A stretch of 60,661 bases of DNA from a virus (taxonomy: Duplodnaviria; Caudoviricetes): IMG/VR virus record IMGVR_UViG_3300021425_002553, positions 1-60,661 of that record, one strand, 5' to 3'. Both the position numbers and the translations under genes were made by a program. The notes beneath the pieces were generated by a model. The model was not told where the DNA came from, made no database searches, and saw nothing but the letters and a program-made list of their open reading frames with translations. How positions within the stretch are numbered: position 1 is the stretch's first letter; each line of letters begins with the position of its first letter. Below are positions 15,671 to 39,105 of the stretch, piece by piece.

Positions 15671-15744
15671 GGGCAAGTAGTTCAGTGGATCAGAACAGCG
15701 CACTTCTAATGCGTTGGTCGGGGGTTCGAATCCCTCCTTGCCTG
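15671..15744 (+). tRNA. tRNA-Arg(TCT)
   Basis: Cloverleaf; anticodon arm GCGCA-CT TCT AA-TGCGT; GGTTCGAATCC. Confidence 0.93.
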
Positions 15745-15769
15745 TTGGTTCAATAGAACCATAAAACGA

Positions 15770-15841
15770 GCCAGTGTAGCTCAGGGGTAGAGCAGGATAC
15801 TTGTAATATTCAGGTCGGGCGTTCAAATCGTCTCACTGGCT
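15770..15841 (+). tRNA. tRNA-Thr(TGT)
   Basis: Acceptor GCCAGTG/CACTGGC; loop CT TGT AA. Confidence 0.9.
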
Positions 15842-15845
15842 CTAA

Positions 15846-15984
15846 GACGGGGAATGAGTTCGCCCGCGACGGTGCTAACCACACTGTGATCTAGAGAGTT
15901 GGTTACTTTCTTCTTGCTCCATTACAAACTGTCAGAATGTTGGGTTTGAATGCCCCATAGCAAGCATTCGGATAAGTGTAATGT
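15846..15984 (+). ncRNA. candidate structured RNA (kissing loop plus pseudoknot)
   Basis: Several stems; loops CTAACCA and TGGTTA are complementary; CATTACA/TGTAATG closing stem. Confidence 0.55.
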
Positions 15985-15986
15985 TC

Positions 15987-16059
15987 GGGGAATTAGCTCA
16001 GTTGGTAGAGCACCTGCTTTGCAAGCAGGCTGTCAGGAGTTCGAGTCTCCTATTCTCCA
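15987..16059 (+). tRNA. tRNA-Ala(TGC)
   Basis: GGGGAAT/ATTCTCC acceptor; CCTGC-TT TGC AA-GCAGG. Confidence 0.95.
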
Positions 16060-16090
16060 TTCCCGAAAGGGAAATTTAGTGTGTAGGTAA

Positions 16091-16672
16091 ATGATTGATT
16101 CTTTTTCTGATTTTATATACGTTGCTGACGGTGCTCTGGAACCAGAGTTCTGTAAGAATGTTATTGAAAAATTTGAGAAAGATGATAACAGACACCAAGG
16201 TATCATTGCAGGGGGAAGAGTTAACACTTCTATCAAAGATTCTCTTGATATAAACATATCAAGGTATCCTGATTGGAAGGAAGAAGATGAAGTCTTTTTC
16301 AAGTCCCTTAATACTCATCACCGATTGTATATGGATGGTAAGTGGTCTTCCACTCACAACCCAGGCTTAGGTGATTTTACTGATTCTGGATATCAGATAC
16401 AGAGAACTCGTCCTGGCGCTGGATATATTTGGCACCATGATGCAATGTTTGGTGAAACTATTGGTGACCGAGGTGTGAGGTGTACCACTTACATATGGTA
16501 TCTTAATGATATCGATGAAGATGGATATACTGAGTTTATCGATGGTACTAAAGTTCAACCAAAGACTGGAAGGATTTGTATCTTCCCAGCAACTTGGACT
16601 TACATGCACCGTGGATATCCACCAAAGAATCAAACTAAGTATCTTGTAACTGGTTGGATGCACTCTAAATAA
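16091..16672 (+). CDS. 2OG-Fe(II) oxygenase (prolyl-4-hydroxylase-like)
   Basis: WHHD...YLND...YMHRG...KY motif set. Confidence 0.9.
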   Translation: MIDSFSDFIYVADGALEPEFCKNVIEKFEKDDNRHQGIIAGGRVNTSIKDSLDINISRYPDWKEEDEVFFKSLNTHHRLYMDGKWSSTHNPGLGDFTDSGYQIQRTRPGAGYIWHHDAMFGETIGDRGVRCTTYIWYLNDIDEDGYTEFIDGTKVQPKTGRICIFPATWTYMHRGYPPKNQTKYLVTGWMHSK

Positions 16673-16681
16673 AAAACTCGA

Positions 16682-16753
16682 TGGCGTGTAGCTCAACGGC
16701 AGAGCAGGGAGCTGTTAACTCTCTGGTTGCTGGTTCGAATCCAGCCACGCCAG
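16682..16753 (+). tRNA. tRNA-Asn(GTT)
   Basis: TGGCGTG/CACGCCA; GGGAG-CT GTT AA-CTCTC. Confidence 0.93.
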
Positions 16754-16756
16754 CTC

Positions 16757-16828
16757 GCAAGAATAGCTCAGCGGTAGAGCATCTCGTTTACACCGAGGCG
16801 GTCGGGGGTTCGATCCCCTCTTCTTGCA
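16757..16828 (+). tRNA. tRNA-Val(TAC)
   Basis: GCAAGAA/TTCTTGC; loop TT TAC AC. Confidence 0.93.
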
Positions 16829-16851
16829 TGTCTCAATTGCGCACATGAACC

Positions 16852-17100
16852 ATGATTACCGTAAGATGCAAACAGTGTAACAAGGAAATCAGAAGTGACC
16901 ACCACACTCATTGTTGTGGTTGTCCAAACATGATGACAGTAATTGAAGACAAAGTGACAGCCGTTGACCTTTCTAAGGTCGTTATGGTACAATCACAGAA
17001 GGAAACTAAACCAAAAAGTTACCTATCACAATCTGATCTCTCCTTTCAAGAAGAGAGGAGAAAACGTAAGGTCAGAAAATTGGACTTTGATGTTCGTTAA
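16852..17100 (+). CDS. small Cys-rich (Zn-ribbon-like) hypothetical protein
   Basis: CKQC...CCGCPN. Confidence 0.75.
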   Translation: MITVRCKQCNKEIRSDHHTHCCGCPNMMTVIEDKVTAVDLSKVVMVQSQKETKPKSYLSQSDLSFQEERRKRKVRKLDFDVR

Positions 17101-17286
17101 ATGTCACATCGATTCGATGAAATCAAACCTGATCACTACATCACCGAACGTCAGTGTCAGGAGATGATTGATAAGGCAATCGATAAACACAACAAAACTG
17201 CAACCATCATTAGTGCTTGTATAGGAACAGTTCTTCTGTTCTTCTATGCTCAAGGTCTGTTGATTGTGTTGGGGGTTTGGAAATAA
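17101..17286 (+). CDS. small membrane protein
   Basis: C-terminal hydrophobic helix. Confidence 0.7.
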   Translation: MSHRFDEIKPDHYITERQCQEMIDKAIDKHNKTATIISACIGTVLLFFYAQGLLIVLGVWK

Positions 17287-17374
17287 GGAAGATTGGCAGA
17301 GTGGTTGATCGCGTTGGTCTTGAAAACCAATAAGGGTAACACCTTCCAGGGTTCGAATCCCTGATCTTCCGCCA
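17287..17374 (+). tRNA. tRNA-Ser(TGA), CCA encoded
   Basis: Long variable arm; TTGGT-CT TGA AA-ACCAA; ends GCCA. Confidence 0.95.
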
Positions 17375-17448
17375 CGAGAAGTAGCTCAGTTTGGTAGAGC
17401 TCTCGCTTTGGGAGCGAGTGGCCGCAGGTTCGAATCCTGTCTTCTCGA
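17375..17448 (+). tRNA. tRNA-Pro(TGG)
   Basis: CGAGAAG/CTTCTCG; CTCGC-TT TGG GA-GCGAG. Confidence 0.95.
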
Positions 17449-17488
17449 TCGGGTCATCCCCAATAAATAAATCAACCACAAGAAACTG

Positions 17489-17659
17489 ATGGAAGTATTC
17501 TCGGTAGAAGAGTTTCAAGAGAACTGGGACGAGCTTATACAAAGGGTAGAGAACGGGGAAATATTTGGTATAGTAAACGAAAACGGTAACGCGGCAGTGA
17601 TGATGTCCACTGACGATGACCTTTATAAAATGTATACCGACCACAACGAAGCCTCCTAA
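17489..17659 (+). CDS. small protein, Phd/YefM antitoxin-like N-terminus (56 aa)
   Basis: MEVFSVEEFQENWDELIQRVENGEIFGIVNENGNAAVMMS resembles the Phd/YefM pattern; not in ORF track. Confidence 0.5.
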   Translation: MEVFSVEEFQENWDELIQRVENGEIFGIVNENGNAAVMMSTDDDLYKMYTDHNEAS

Positions 17660-17731
17660 GAGACTGTCGCATATTGGTTAATGCTCGCTCCTTATAAGGG
17701 CGCAAACTGGGTTCAATTCCCGACAGTCCCA
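17660..17731 (+). tRNA. tRNA-Ile(TAT)
   Basis: CGCTC-CT TAT AA-GGGCG; single mismatches in acceptor and T stems. Confidence 0.8.
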
Positions 17732-17735
17732 CTAA

Positions 17736-17808
17736 GCTGGTTTAGCAATCTGGTGAATGCTCCGAACTCATAATTCGGCTGAGACGTGTTCGATCCACGT
17801 AACCAGCA
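17736..17808 (+). tRNA. tRNA-Met(CAT)
   Basis: GCTGGTT/AACCAGC; CCGAA-CT CAT AA-TTCGG; could alternatively be a lysidine Ile2. Confidence 0.85.
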
Positions 17809-35558: not shown

Positions 35559-35849
35559 ATGGACTATAATATCACAATCCAAACTCCTGATGGTACAGAG
35601 ACCACCTTCGAGTGTGCTGATGACCAGTACATCCTTGAGGCGGCTGAGGAGGCAGGTGTAGACCTTCCTTACTCCTGTAAGGCTGGTGCATGTTCTGCAT
35701 GTGCTGGTAAGATCGTCAGTGGAACTGTGGACAATGAGGAACAATCCTTCCTGGATGATGATCAACTTGAAGAGGGATACATTCTGACCTGTGTTGCATA
35801 TCCAACCAGTGATTGTGTGATTCTTTCCGAACAGGAAGAAAACCTTTGA
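35559..35849 (+). CDS. petF: plant-type [2Fe-2S] ferredoxin
   Basis: [13 protein letters not shown]...ILTCVAYP. Confidence 0.97.
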
Positions 35850-35866: not shown

Positions 35867-36016
35867 ATGCCAGATCCAGATGCATTGTGGAAGGATATCC
35901 AGAGACTCGATGATTTATATGAAGAGTTACTCTGGGATCCTGACGATGAGTTACAATTCACCCATGATGGTGAAAAAATTATCATTACAAACAAAACACA
36001 AGAGGAAAAACAATGA
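35867..36016 (+). CDS. hypothetical protein (49 aa)
   Basis: MPDPDALWKDIQRLDDLYEELLW...; not in ORF track. Confidence 0.6.
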   Translation: MPDPDALWKDIQRLDDLYEELLWDPDDELQFTHDGEKIIITNKTQEEKQ

Positions 36017-36120
36017 ACGAAAAAGCAGAAAGAATTAATGGTTGGGCAGCAATGATCGGAGTGATCGCTGCAATGGGTAGTTACGCAACTACAGGTCAAA
36101 TCATCCCAGGCATCTGGTGA
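36013..36120 (+). CDS. hli: high-light inducible protein (35 aa)
   Basis: MNEKAERINGWAAMIGVIAAMGSYATTGQIIPGIW; AExxNG and TGQIIPG motifs; not in ORF track. Confidence 0.93.
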   Translation: MNEKAERINGWAAMIGVIAAMGSYATTGQIIPGIW

Positions 36121-37309: not shown

Positions 37310-37341
37310 TAAATAGTAACGTAGTAGAGATATAGTTTCCG

Positions 37342-37541
37342 ATGTATCGGGAACCACATTTACAAAAGAAGTCAGATGAGTGTGCTGTTCTGTGGAGGGA
37401 GTGGCACACTTTGTGGCGAAAAAAGCAATAAATGCCCCAGATGCAAGAGCGGAATGGGGTCAATGTGTGACGGAATTTGGTGAAATGGTAAGTCAGGAAG
37501 TCAAAACAAATCCTCGTTACACTTCAATCAGGAAGGTATAG
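37342..37541 (+). CDS. small gene with candidate -1 programmed frameshift (29 aa / 66 aa products)
   Basis: In-frame A_AAA_AAG at 37419-37425, stop at 37431, downstream hairpin, -1 frame open to 37541. Confidence 0.6.
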
Positions 37542-37564
37542 ATAGTGTAGTTACATAAACTAGT

Positions 37565-37888
37565 ATGAAGTTCTTATTCGCACTTCTTGCTACATTATTC
37601 TTCAGTGCTCCTGCGTGGGCAGTAGATGTACAGATGGGATATGAAGGAAACCTTGTATTCGAACCTTCAGAAGTCACCATCTCCGCTGGAGAATCAGTCC
37701 ACTTTATCAACAACATGCTTCCTCCTCATAACGTGATCGTGGAGGATCATCCAGAGTTAGGTCATGAAGCCCTGGCAATGTTACCAGGTGAAGACTTTAC
37801 TGTTGAATTCTCAGAGTCAGGTGACTATACTTACTGGTGTGGACCCCACAAGGGTGCAGGCATGATCGCAACAGTTCACGTCGAATGA
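37565..37888 (+). CDS. petE: plastocyanin
   Basis: Signal peptide; PHNV, YWCGPHKGAGM copper ligands. Confidence 0.96.
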   Translation: MKFLFALLATLFFSAPAWAVDVQMGYEGNLVFEPSEVTISAGESVHFINNMLPPHNVIVEDHPELGHEALAMLPGEDFTVEFSESGDYTYWCGPHKGAGMIATVHVE

Positions 37889-38058
37889 ACAAAGACCAAA
37901 AAAGAGAATTCTACAAGTCTTTGAGAGAACGCATCAAACAACTTAGAATGGAGCATCTCTTCGAAGAACCTTGTCCTCTTTATGAGCCAGAATGGGAAGA
38001 AGACTACTGTTGGGATTGTCGATTAACCTACGATCACGACGAAGATGACGAAACTTAA
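37885..38058 (+). CDS. hypothetical protein
   Basis: ATGA overlap; MNKDQKREFYKSL... Confidence 0.65.
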   Translation: MNKDQKREFYKSLRERIKQLRMEHLFEEPCPLYEPEWEEDYCWDCRLTYDHDEDDET

Positions 38059-38085: not shown

Positions 38086-39105
38086 ATGAGAGTAGGTCTA
38101 ATTGGTCTCGGACGTATGGGTGAGGGTATGTCTCGCCGTATGATGAAGAGTGGTATTGAAGTCTGGGGTTATCGTCGTAACCACGATAAAGCTCAAGAGG
38201 CTTTCGAAAAAGGTTATGTCGATGGAGTAACCGTTGACATTGCATCCCTGTGTACCACCGTGAAGGAAAGGGGACCTGGAATTTTTATGATGGTAGTACC
38301 AGCAGAAACAGTGGAGGACACTCTCAATGAGCTTTTACGCTATTGTGGCGAGGGCGATATTATTATTGATCACGGCAATTCTAATTTTAAGGATTCCCGC
38401 AGGAGAGCACTCCGTCTTGAGAAACTTGGCATCCAATATATTGACTGTGGCACTAGTGGTGGTGTGTACGGTTTGGAGCGTGGATATTGTCTTATGGTTG
38501 GGGGTTCAAATACTGCAGTATCCATCTGCTCTCCTATCTTCAGGGCACTCGCACCAGGTATTGGATCTGCCCATCGCACTGATCCTCTGAGTCGTGAAAC
38601 ATCTGCAGAGCACGGATGGTTACATTGTGGTGGACCTGGTGCAGGACACTTCGTAAAAATGGTCCACAACGGAGTTGAGTATGGAATCATGCAAGCGTAC
38701 GCCGAAGGCTTTAATATCCTGCATGAAGCTGATCTTGGGTCGTTTTACGTTAAGGAGGGCGATGCTGAGGTGGCTCCGATGGAGAATCCAGAAGATTATC
38801 AGTACGATATTGACGTTGCTGAAGTCGCTGAGTTATGGCGTCGTGGTTCTGTTGTTGGTAGTTGGTTACTTGATCTTACCGCTGATGTACTACGGAGCGA
38901 TCGAGAGCTTAGCAAGTTCGATGGTGGAGTATCAGACAGTGGTGAGGGTCGTTGGACTGTCCACGCTGCTGTGGATCTTGGCGTACCCGCTCCTGTTATC
39001 ACTACGGCACTGTACGAACGATTCGGTTCAAGAAAGCTTGGACGATTCGCAAACAGAGTCTTGAACGGAATGAGAGCAATGTTCGGAGGACACGATGTTC
39101 GGTAA
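38086..39105 (+). CDS. gnd: 6-phosphogluconate dehydrogenase (short form)
   Basis: GLIGLGRMG, IIDHGNS, DCGTSGG, GHFVKMVHNGVEY, SGEGRW. Confidence 0.97.
   Translation: MRVGLIGLGRMGEGMSRRMMKSGIEVWGYRRNHDKAQEAFEKGYVDGVTVDIASLCTTVKERGPGIFMMVVPAETVEDTLNELLRYCGEGDIIIDHGNSNFKDSRRRALRLEKLGIQYIDCGTSGGVYGLERGYCLMVGGSNTAVSICSPIFRALAPGIGSAHRTDPLSRETSAEHGWLHCGGPGAGHFVKMVHNGVEYGIMQAYAEGFNILHEADLGSFYVKEGDAEVAPMENPEDYQYDIDVAEVAELWRRGSVVGSWLLDLTADVLRSDRELSKFDGGVSDSGEGRWTVHAAVDLGVPAPVITTALYERFGSRKLGRFANRVLNGMRAMFGGHDVR

Follow-up and report, generated by a model that had tools for sequence, protein, structure and literature searches.

Directly upstream of the petE counterpart in a T4-like cyanomyovirus lies a small ORF of 29 aa (37342-37431) that closes with CGA AAA AAG CAA TAA, and a second reading frame, displaced by -1, is open across its end and continues almost to petE. 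The question raised by this locus is whether the A_AAA_AAG heptamer at the junction is a programmed -1 ribosomal frameshift site that joins both frames into one protein, or whether the arrangement has another origin such as a sequencing error, a decaying gene, slippage of the RNA polymerase or two separately translated peptides. An earlier note on this DNA had proposed the first of these. All the elements which it described, i.e. the position and phase of the heptamer, the spacer, the stem, the -1 frame running to TAG and petE as the next gene, were located where the note had placed them in the window (here, the whole 60,661-nt stretch of viral DNA that was analysed). The features of the locus are listed below, with the term broken form used for sequences in which the two halves of the gene lie in different frames and the term continuous form for those with both halves in a single ORF.

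37342..37541, + strand: putatively recoded gene as a whole, in frame 0 from ATG 37342 to the heptamer and in frame -1 from 37425 to TAG 37539-37541; conceptual product 66 aa
37342..37431, + strand: frame 0 ORF of 29 aa (MYREPHLQKKSDECAVLWREWHTLWRKKQ*), supported by translation and frame 0 conservation; would be the non-shifted product, with helix 1 only
37394..37401, + strand: Shine-Dalgarno-like GGAGGGAG, 17 nt 5' of the heptamer; GGAGG is commoner in broken forms; candidate 5' stimulator or internal ribosome-binding site
37419..37425, + strand: slippery heptamer A_AAA_AAG in X_XXY_YYZ phase, from sequence and conservation
37426..37433, + strand: spacer of 8 nt between heptamer and hairpin, from sequence
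37429..37431, + strand: frame 0 stop TAA one codon past the heptamer; a stop stands here in 103 of 113 distinct broken sequences
37434..37460, + strand: 3' hairpin with outer stem 37434-37439/37455-37460 and inner stem 37442-37444/37449-37451
37425..37541, + strand: frame -1 continuation (AINAPDARAEWGQCVTEFGEMVSQEVKTNPRYTSIRKV*), supported by frame -1 conservation; loop and helix 2; the enclosing ORF 37380-37538 matches phrog_8483
37565..37888, + strand: petE counterpart, an ORF of 107 codons corresponding to the annotated petE of S-SM2

The gene family and its two forms

Within the window by itself, the combination of heptamer and hairpin is not beyond chance. The word AAAAAAG occurs 20 times against 17.2 expected, a count reached by 30 of 100 shuffles, and the hairpin, formed by the stem GCCCCA (37434-37439)/TGGGGT (37455-37460) with an additional 3-bp inner stem, has a minimum free energy of -13.4 kcal/mol (z -1.78), with 12 of 200 shuffles folding as well. 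Significance can therefore come only through conservation in relatives. Another AAAAAAG (37898-37904) is present in the ORF at 37885-38058, a small, acidic and Cys-containing ORF directly 3' of petE; as it is out of X_XXY_YYZ phase, it does not constitute a comparable slip site.

The 271 nt around the site matched 37 phage records by blastn, all of them from Synechococcus phages or cyanophages, with S-SM2 as the closest (92.8% identity). The DNA similarity to these relatives extends from the small ORF's ATG across the frame break. A tblastn search of the phage collection returned 56 records with the gene family, again all from Synechococcus phages, and on these collections the small family appears confined to T4-like phages of Synechococcus. 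The heptamer, the frame break and the 3' hairpin were found to be conserved in the relatives.

The window and ten isolates were aligned and translated in three frames. The break is shared by nine of the 11 aligned sequences (the window, S-SM2, S-CAM3, S-H9-1, S-RSM4, S-H9-2, S-CAM22, S-CAM1 and Syn19), and the layout is common to this type: a start codon, the segment YRE(P/K)HLQKKSDECA.LWREW..., the in-phase A_AAA_AAG and a frame 0 stop one codon on, with the -1 frame reading A(L/I)GAPDAR..W(C/G).C..EFGEM.SQEVKTNPRY. S-SCSM1 and S-B05 carry both halves in a single ORF of 71 and 69 aa, respectively, and have a different linker, 10-13 nt longer and without the A run. The existence of such single-ORF homologues shows that the two halves belong to one protein. 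Six more isolates that were picked as suggested broken forms (S-BM3, S-IOM18, S-M1, S-H25, S-8S29 and Sf-CH1b) all have the break and the heptamer, so that both are present in 14 of 14 frame-broken phage isolates, with the heptamer run being A6 or A7 followed by G. Ten of the broken isolates have an assigned genus and span nine genera of the Kyanoviridae; the S-BM3 record has no genus and the Sf-CH1b record no family.

Metagenomic sequences from IMG/VR were used to extend the sample. A search with the two continuous proteins gave 192 relatives, and the best 80 of the 192 each match the query in one segment, hence continuous ORFs are common. At least 119 contigs match the DNA pattern TGGNGGGAGTGG with a correctly spaced AAAAAAG, and when these matches were read, all except one chance match (L169) showed the same two-frame gene. 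Because this pattern presupposes the heptamer, a second sample was selected by the C-terminal motif alone, using EVKTNPRY as IUPAC DNA; 80 of its at least 119 matches were classified by an N-terminal pattern, with the leftovers assigned by eye. The -1 break was seen in 42 of the 80 loci, in every case with an in-phase AAAAAAG at the same codon (42/42), and a continuous ORF of 64-78 aa in 33. The others comprise one locus cut by the contig end just past the site (L243), one C-terminal remnant without the N-terminal part (L210) and three unrelated proteins. No family member among these 80 loci has a frame break without the heptamer. Judged from this sample, frameshifted and continuous members are about equally frequent in the family. 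The remnant in L210 (at about 463 of the contig) ends in …CADELGEMVNEEVKTNPRYK and has no recognisable N-terminal part upstream, as would be seen in a decayed copy or in a different fusion.

The correspondence between the two forms is close. The conceptual product of the window is as long as continuous relatives such as L024, a homologue from IMG/VR, and aligns with them without gaps, and in S-SM2 100% of the L024 query is covered in two pieces at 75% identity (tblastn).

A break within a homopolymer is in the classic place for a sequencing error, and several genome records leave the locus unannotated, as might be expected for an artefact or for a recent frameshift mutation in a dispensable, decaying gene. 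Against this, the same break recurs in 14 independently sequenced isolates and in at least 119 IMG/VR contigs that match the broken-form pattern (one, L169, by chance), and the downstream frame is still conserved at the protein level. An assembly error is argued against by contigs of two DNA runs, a possible source run and an independent one, which show neither an insertion nor a deletion at the site, and by a contig from an independent study that spans 37335-37544 without gaps. The additional A which would turn the two frames into one ORF was seen neither in the 14 isolates and the at least 119 contigs nor in the contigs of the two DNA runs; the single-ORF relatives (S-SCSM1, S-B05 and many IMG/VR contigs) differ by their A-run-free linker and not by one extra A. 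We regard an artefact or pseudogene as having practically no chance of being the explanation.

The annotation of the gene follows its two forms. Among the 14 frame-broken GenBank records the gene is absent in five (S-BM3, S-IOM18, S-M1, S-H25 and Sf-CH1b; loci L290-L293 and L295, at about 301-491 of the locus) and is otherwise represented by a truncated -1-frame ORF called from an arbitrary internal NTG. No joined CDS for the gene is annotated in the ten isolate records, and the continuous genes of S-SCSM1 and S-B05 are annotated as a whole ORF. The upstream boundary also differs between records. In S-CAM3, S-CAM22 and Syn19 (L002, L007 and L010; locus positions 453-635) an upstream annotated ORF (T4-like GC 850/922, 'gp123') runs, in a different frame, over some 35 nt at the start of the gene. 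The upstream annotated ORF of S-RSM4, S-H9-1, S-H9-2 and S-CAM1 ends at locus position 600, directly before the gene, which starts with GTG, and in the alignment S-RSM4 and S-H9-1 have a TAGTG stop/start overlap.

Frame usage around the heptamer

Amino-acid identity was averaged over all pairs of 107 distinct broken sequences in each of the three frames. The part upstream of the heptamer gives values of 0.80 (frame 0), 0.45 (frame -1) and 0.50 (frame +1), and the downstream part 0.44, 0.70 and 0.41, respectively. In these related sequences the heptamer marks the exact point at which conservation leaves frame 0 and continues in frame -1. Translation of frame 0 in the upstream part is further indicated by an N-terminal serine codon which alternates between TCN and AGY among the phages. 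The heptamer is invariant, yet the Lys-Lys pair ten codons upstream is spelled AAGAAG, AAAAAG, AAAAAA or AAGAAA.

The place of the frame change can be narrowed down from sequences in which one frame is closed. In 12 of the 113 distinct broken sequences, the stretch of frame -1 that is open before the heptamer contains no ATG, GTG or TTG; in seven of these 12 a -1-frame TGA abuts the heptamer, with the frame 0 stop one codon later. A TGA at this position together with the nearby frame 0 stop confines the frame change to about ten nucleotides. The features expected of an X_XXY_YYZ site were thus found, namely a heptamer in phase and a conserved -1 polypeptide with a shift window confined to the heptamer. 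The frame 0 stop one codon past the heptamer is absent in 10/113 sequences, which read on for 5-19 more codons and keep the -1 part; this stop is hence usual and not required. Four isolates, S-IOM18, S-M1, S-H25 and S-8S29 (L291-L294), all belong to Tefnutvirus. They have TTG instead of TTA after the heptamer, which takes frame 0 on for 16 codons and gives a 45-aa unshifted product; they are also without GGAGG (LWHRW/LWHHW). Both the heptamer and a strong hairpin (-15 to -19 kcal/mol) are nonetheless retained in these four.

The same protein would result if the RNA polymerase added one A within the run, and the homopolymeric A run does lie exactly at the frame junction, with six A in 73 and seven in the other 40 of the 113 distinct broken sequences. 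RNA-library contigs cover the region in pieces, none of which bridges the heptamer, and are silent on transcription and on polymerase slippage. Efficient transcriptional slippage in bacteria needs roughly nine or more A/T. The run here, in contrast, is never longer than seven, which is short of the long homopolymer by which transcriptional slippage is recognised, and it always ends in G in the X_XXY_YYZ phase. The sequences on either side of the heptamer bear on this alternative as well as on that of two separate peptides.

Sequences flanking the heptamer

All six pairs of the outer stem can form in 84 of the 113 distinct broken sequences, and five of them in a further 21. Overall, 93.8% of the alignment cells in the stem are paired compared to 87.6% in shuffles, none of 500 of which reaches the observed value, and pairing falls to 29-40% when one arm is slid. 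Covariation is seen at one pair, 18:40 (GU 46, AU 30, CG 21, UG 4, UA 2, unpaired 4), which combines the third base of an Ala codon with the first base of a Cys/Gly/Ser codon. The arms are doubly constrained, since they also encode Ala-Pro and Trp-Cys/Gly. In a scan with the first 4 nt past the heptamer forced to be unpaired, the first hairpin begins 7-8 nt past the heptamer in 92/113 sequences and 6-9 nt past it in 105/113, with a mean of -11.9 kcal/mol. The RNAalifold consensus keeps 4 bp only (-2.37 kcal/mol), thus the shared structural core is weak and individual lineages extend it differently. Lineages without GCNCCA have other, stronger hairpins with other arm sequences at the same place, such as L239 (-21.4 kcal/mol, z -5.5) and S-CAM1 (-16.5 kcal/mol, z -4.1).

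The continuous forms offer a comparison. A 6-bp helix onto the Trp codon can be formed in 100/107 broken but only 6/80 continuous sequences, and the 50 nt past the heptamer in the broken forms (n=107) have a mean of -13.2 kcal/mol (z -1.88, GC 0.50) whereas the equivalent region of the continuous forms (n=80) has -4.75 kcal/mol (z -0.35, GC 0.35), contrasts which, together with that in GGAGG, may amount to a single evolutionary event because on a tree built from 180 protein sequences the broken/continuous trait requires two changes, or possibly one. Part of the separation of the two groups on this tree comes from the linker columns themselves, and the P value for the energy contrast is nominal. 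As computed on the related sequences, the hairpin starts within the distance of about 5-9 nt expected of a stimulatory structure, for which it is a candidate. Rfam has no frameshift element that fits the site, and its only match, with an E-value of 9.4, is one expected by chance.

A conserved and covarying structure at a spacing of 7-8 nt is something that polymerase slippage does not need. Taken with the short run and its phase, this makes transcriptional slippage unlikely as the source of the longer product, and favours a slip of the ribosome.

Upstream of the heptamer, 27 of the 34 distinct broken forms in the C-anchored sample carry the Shine-Dalgarno-like GGAGG, compared to 5 of 32 continuous forms, a difference that again may go back to one event. 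The Arg codon within the element is AGG in 26/26 broken and 5/12 continuous forms, and its fixation in the broken forms points to selection on the nucleotides. The distance from GGAGG to the heptamer is 17-20 nt, farther than the ~10-14 nt that are optimal for dnaX-type stimulation. In 81 of the 113 broken sequences, an ATG (13), GTG (67) or TTG (1) stands six nucleotides before the heptamer in frame -1. From these comparisons the GGAGG element may be a 5' stimulator or a ribosome-binding site for the NTG at -6, and the NTG with the GGAGG upstream may allow the C-terminal part to be initiated separately to some degree.

Such initiation leads to the alternative of a split gene, in which each half is translated as a peptide of its own and the two then associate. 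The C-terminal peptide would start at GTG 37413 in frame -1 with the help of GGAGGGAG (37394-37401) or arise by re-initiation after the stop at 37429. The NTG at -6 in 81/113 broken sequences, the enrichment of GGAGG with its Arg codon fixed as AGG, and the GenBank annotators' calling of the -1 ORF as a separate gene would all fit. However, 32/113 are without a start at -6, and 12/113 have no start anywhere in the open frame -1, seven of them with the stop that abuts the heptamer. Frame -1 upstream of the heptamer is moreover unconserved as protein, with the identity of 0.45 given above, and the single-ORF homologues show the halves as one chain. Separate initiation also leaves both the invariance of the heptamer (42/42) and the hairpin unexplained. 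We consider it quite improbable that the gene is a split one, and ribosomal frameshifting remains the reading under which the product is discussed below.

Product, proposed mechanism and meaning

The ORF at 37380-37538, which contains the -1 part, matches phrog_8483 (E 1e-21, profile positions 1-47 of 58), a family of unknown function in PHROGs, and the continuous homologues match it at 1e-15 to 1e-16. The profile of 58 positions covers the C-terminal half only, in line with the GenBank practice of calling only the -1-frame ORF. The N-terminal 29 aa match no PHROG and no Pfam family, and Pfam gave only a sub-threshold VapE-like match (13.6 bits against a cutoff of 25). The earlier note had envisaged a helical hairpin with two Cys for the long product. 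Such a fold is predicted by AlphaFold2 for the continuous homologue L024, modelled with 76 continuous relatives (pLDDT 87.3, helices 5-26 and 32-56), and Cys14 and Cys42 are invariant in the alignment of these relatives. Helix 1 of the model ends where the shift site lies, and the unshifted product would therefore consist of this helix only. Foldseek found no match in the PDB at E ≤ 0.001, only generic helical hairpins with Mdm35 and CsoR as weak ones; a BFVD structure search found other cyanophage family members only, and a search of the ESM Atlas gave no usable match.

In the window and in all the isolates, the gene is surrounded by auxiliary genes, largely of redox and pentose-phosphate metabolism, with petE, PTOX, zwf, gnd, ferredoxin or an endonuclease as neighbours. 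Upstream in the window are two ORFs that by eye we take to be a plant-type ferredoxin (35559-35849) and a high-light-inducible protein (36013-36120), and these probable identities would place the gene in a photosynthesis/redox auxiliary block. The phage 6-phosphogluconate dehydrogenase of the window (38086-39105, 339 aa) has non-cyanobacterial proteins as its best 80 matches in the genome collection, at 49-54% identity and including Chthoniobacterales, Solirubrobacterales and Actinomycetota, with no Synechococcus among these 80. The window further carries nine tRNA genes at 15671-17808 (Arg-TCT, Thr-TGT, Ala-TGC, Asn-GTT, Val-TAC, Ser-TGA, Pro-TGG, Ile-TAT and Met-CAT), none of which is a tRNA-Lys.

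Heptamer, phase, frame switch and 3' hairpin are all conserved in the relatives and uphold the -1 signal that had been claimed for the window. The conserved product of about 66 aa is, in our view, probably made by programmed -1 ribosomal frameshifting at A_AAA_AAG in the style of dnaX and IS911. Ribosomes would initiate at ATG 37342 and read helix 1 in frame 0 until AAA occupies the P site and AAG the A site, where both lysyl-tRNAs would re-pair one base back on 37419-37425. The slip would be promoted by the hairpin at 37434-37460, 8 nt downstream, and possibly also by the upstream GGAGGGAG. Ribosomes that slip would continue in frame -1 to 37541 and produce the full two-helix protein, and those that do not would stop one codon on and release the 29-aa helix 1 peptide. 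That the slip takes place at the ribosome rather than at the RNA polymerase is inferred, as are its efficiency and the importance of both products.

It is conceivable, although we hold it to be doubtful, that the frameshift is a regulatory device and not a tolerated scar, which would set the ratio of the 29-aa peptide to the 66-aa protein or tune it to the translational state of the host. That state could consist in the supply or modification of lysyl-tRNA or in ribosome pausing at GGAGG, and the short form might then work by itself, or assist or oppose the long form in the redox/pentose-phosphate module. The frame 0 stop that is kept in 103/113 sequences through the choice of TTA/ATA codons is compatible with selection on the short product, as is the persistence of the broken form beside continuous forms across nine named genera.

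In the E. coli dnaX gene (tau/gamma), A_AAA_AAG stands in phase with a 3' stem-loop a few nt downstream and a Shine-Dalgarno-like element upstream. The cyanophage gene likewise has the identical in-phase heptamer, a 3' stem-loop and an upstream SD-like element. The two differ in outcome, since the shifted ribosome ends almost at once in dnaX and gives the shorter product, whereas in the cyanophage gene the shift would give the longer, conserved one. The SD-like element is also 17-20 nt off instead of about 10 as in dnaX, and both gene and organism are unrelated. In IS911 and IS150 of the IS3 family, a short upstream ORF has A_AAA_AAG near its end, and by the shift the overlapping orfA and orfB are joined into a functional long protein; the frame 0 stop is just past the site, followed by a 3' structure, and the downstream ORF may be separately initiated. 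The cyanophage gene has the same arrangement of short ORF, heptamer, stop and 3' structure, but unlike the transposases of these elements its product is a 66-aa predicted helical hairpin within the auxiliary-gene block of a lytic phage.

Apart from this case, frameshifts in phages are to our knowledge described chiefly for genes of tail chaperones and capsid proteins. The tail assembly chaperones G/GT resemble the present case in being a phage gene with a conserved -1 frameshift and two products that share their N-terminus. They differ in that the cyanophage gene lies beside petE, zwf and gnd and not between tail tube and tape measure, and in that its product is far smaller. Passages of the frameshift literature name dnaX as a standard -1 site, and an excerpt of the PRFect paper cites Vladimirov et al. 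in the context of tail-chaperone frameshifting. No published report of the present site was found in the full-text literature, frameshift papers included, the search having covered main texts outside the supplements and subscription journals. The conserved signal is of the dnaX/IS3 type and is probably a programmed ribosomal frameshift in a new gene family.

The annotation of a gene that in GenBank is missing or called only by its -1 half, and of which the PHROG profile covers that same half, can now be corrected. With it, a lytic T4-like cyanophage gains a recoding site that is well supported and lies within the auxiliary metabolic block of globally abundant marine viruses. As the family mixes broken and continuous members, it contains its own natural controls for asking what maintains a frameshift and how much the stimulators add to it, and the phages themselves provide a natural test of a dnaX-type signal on cyanobacterial ribosomes.
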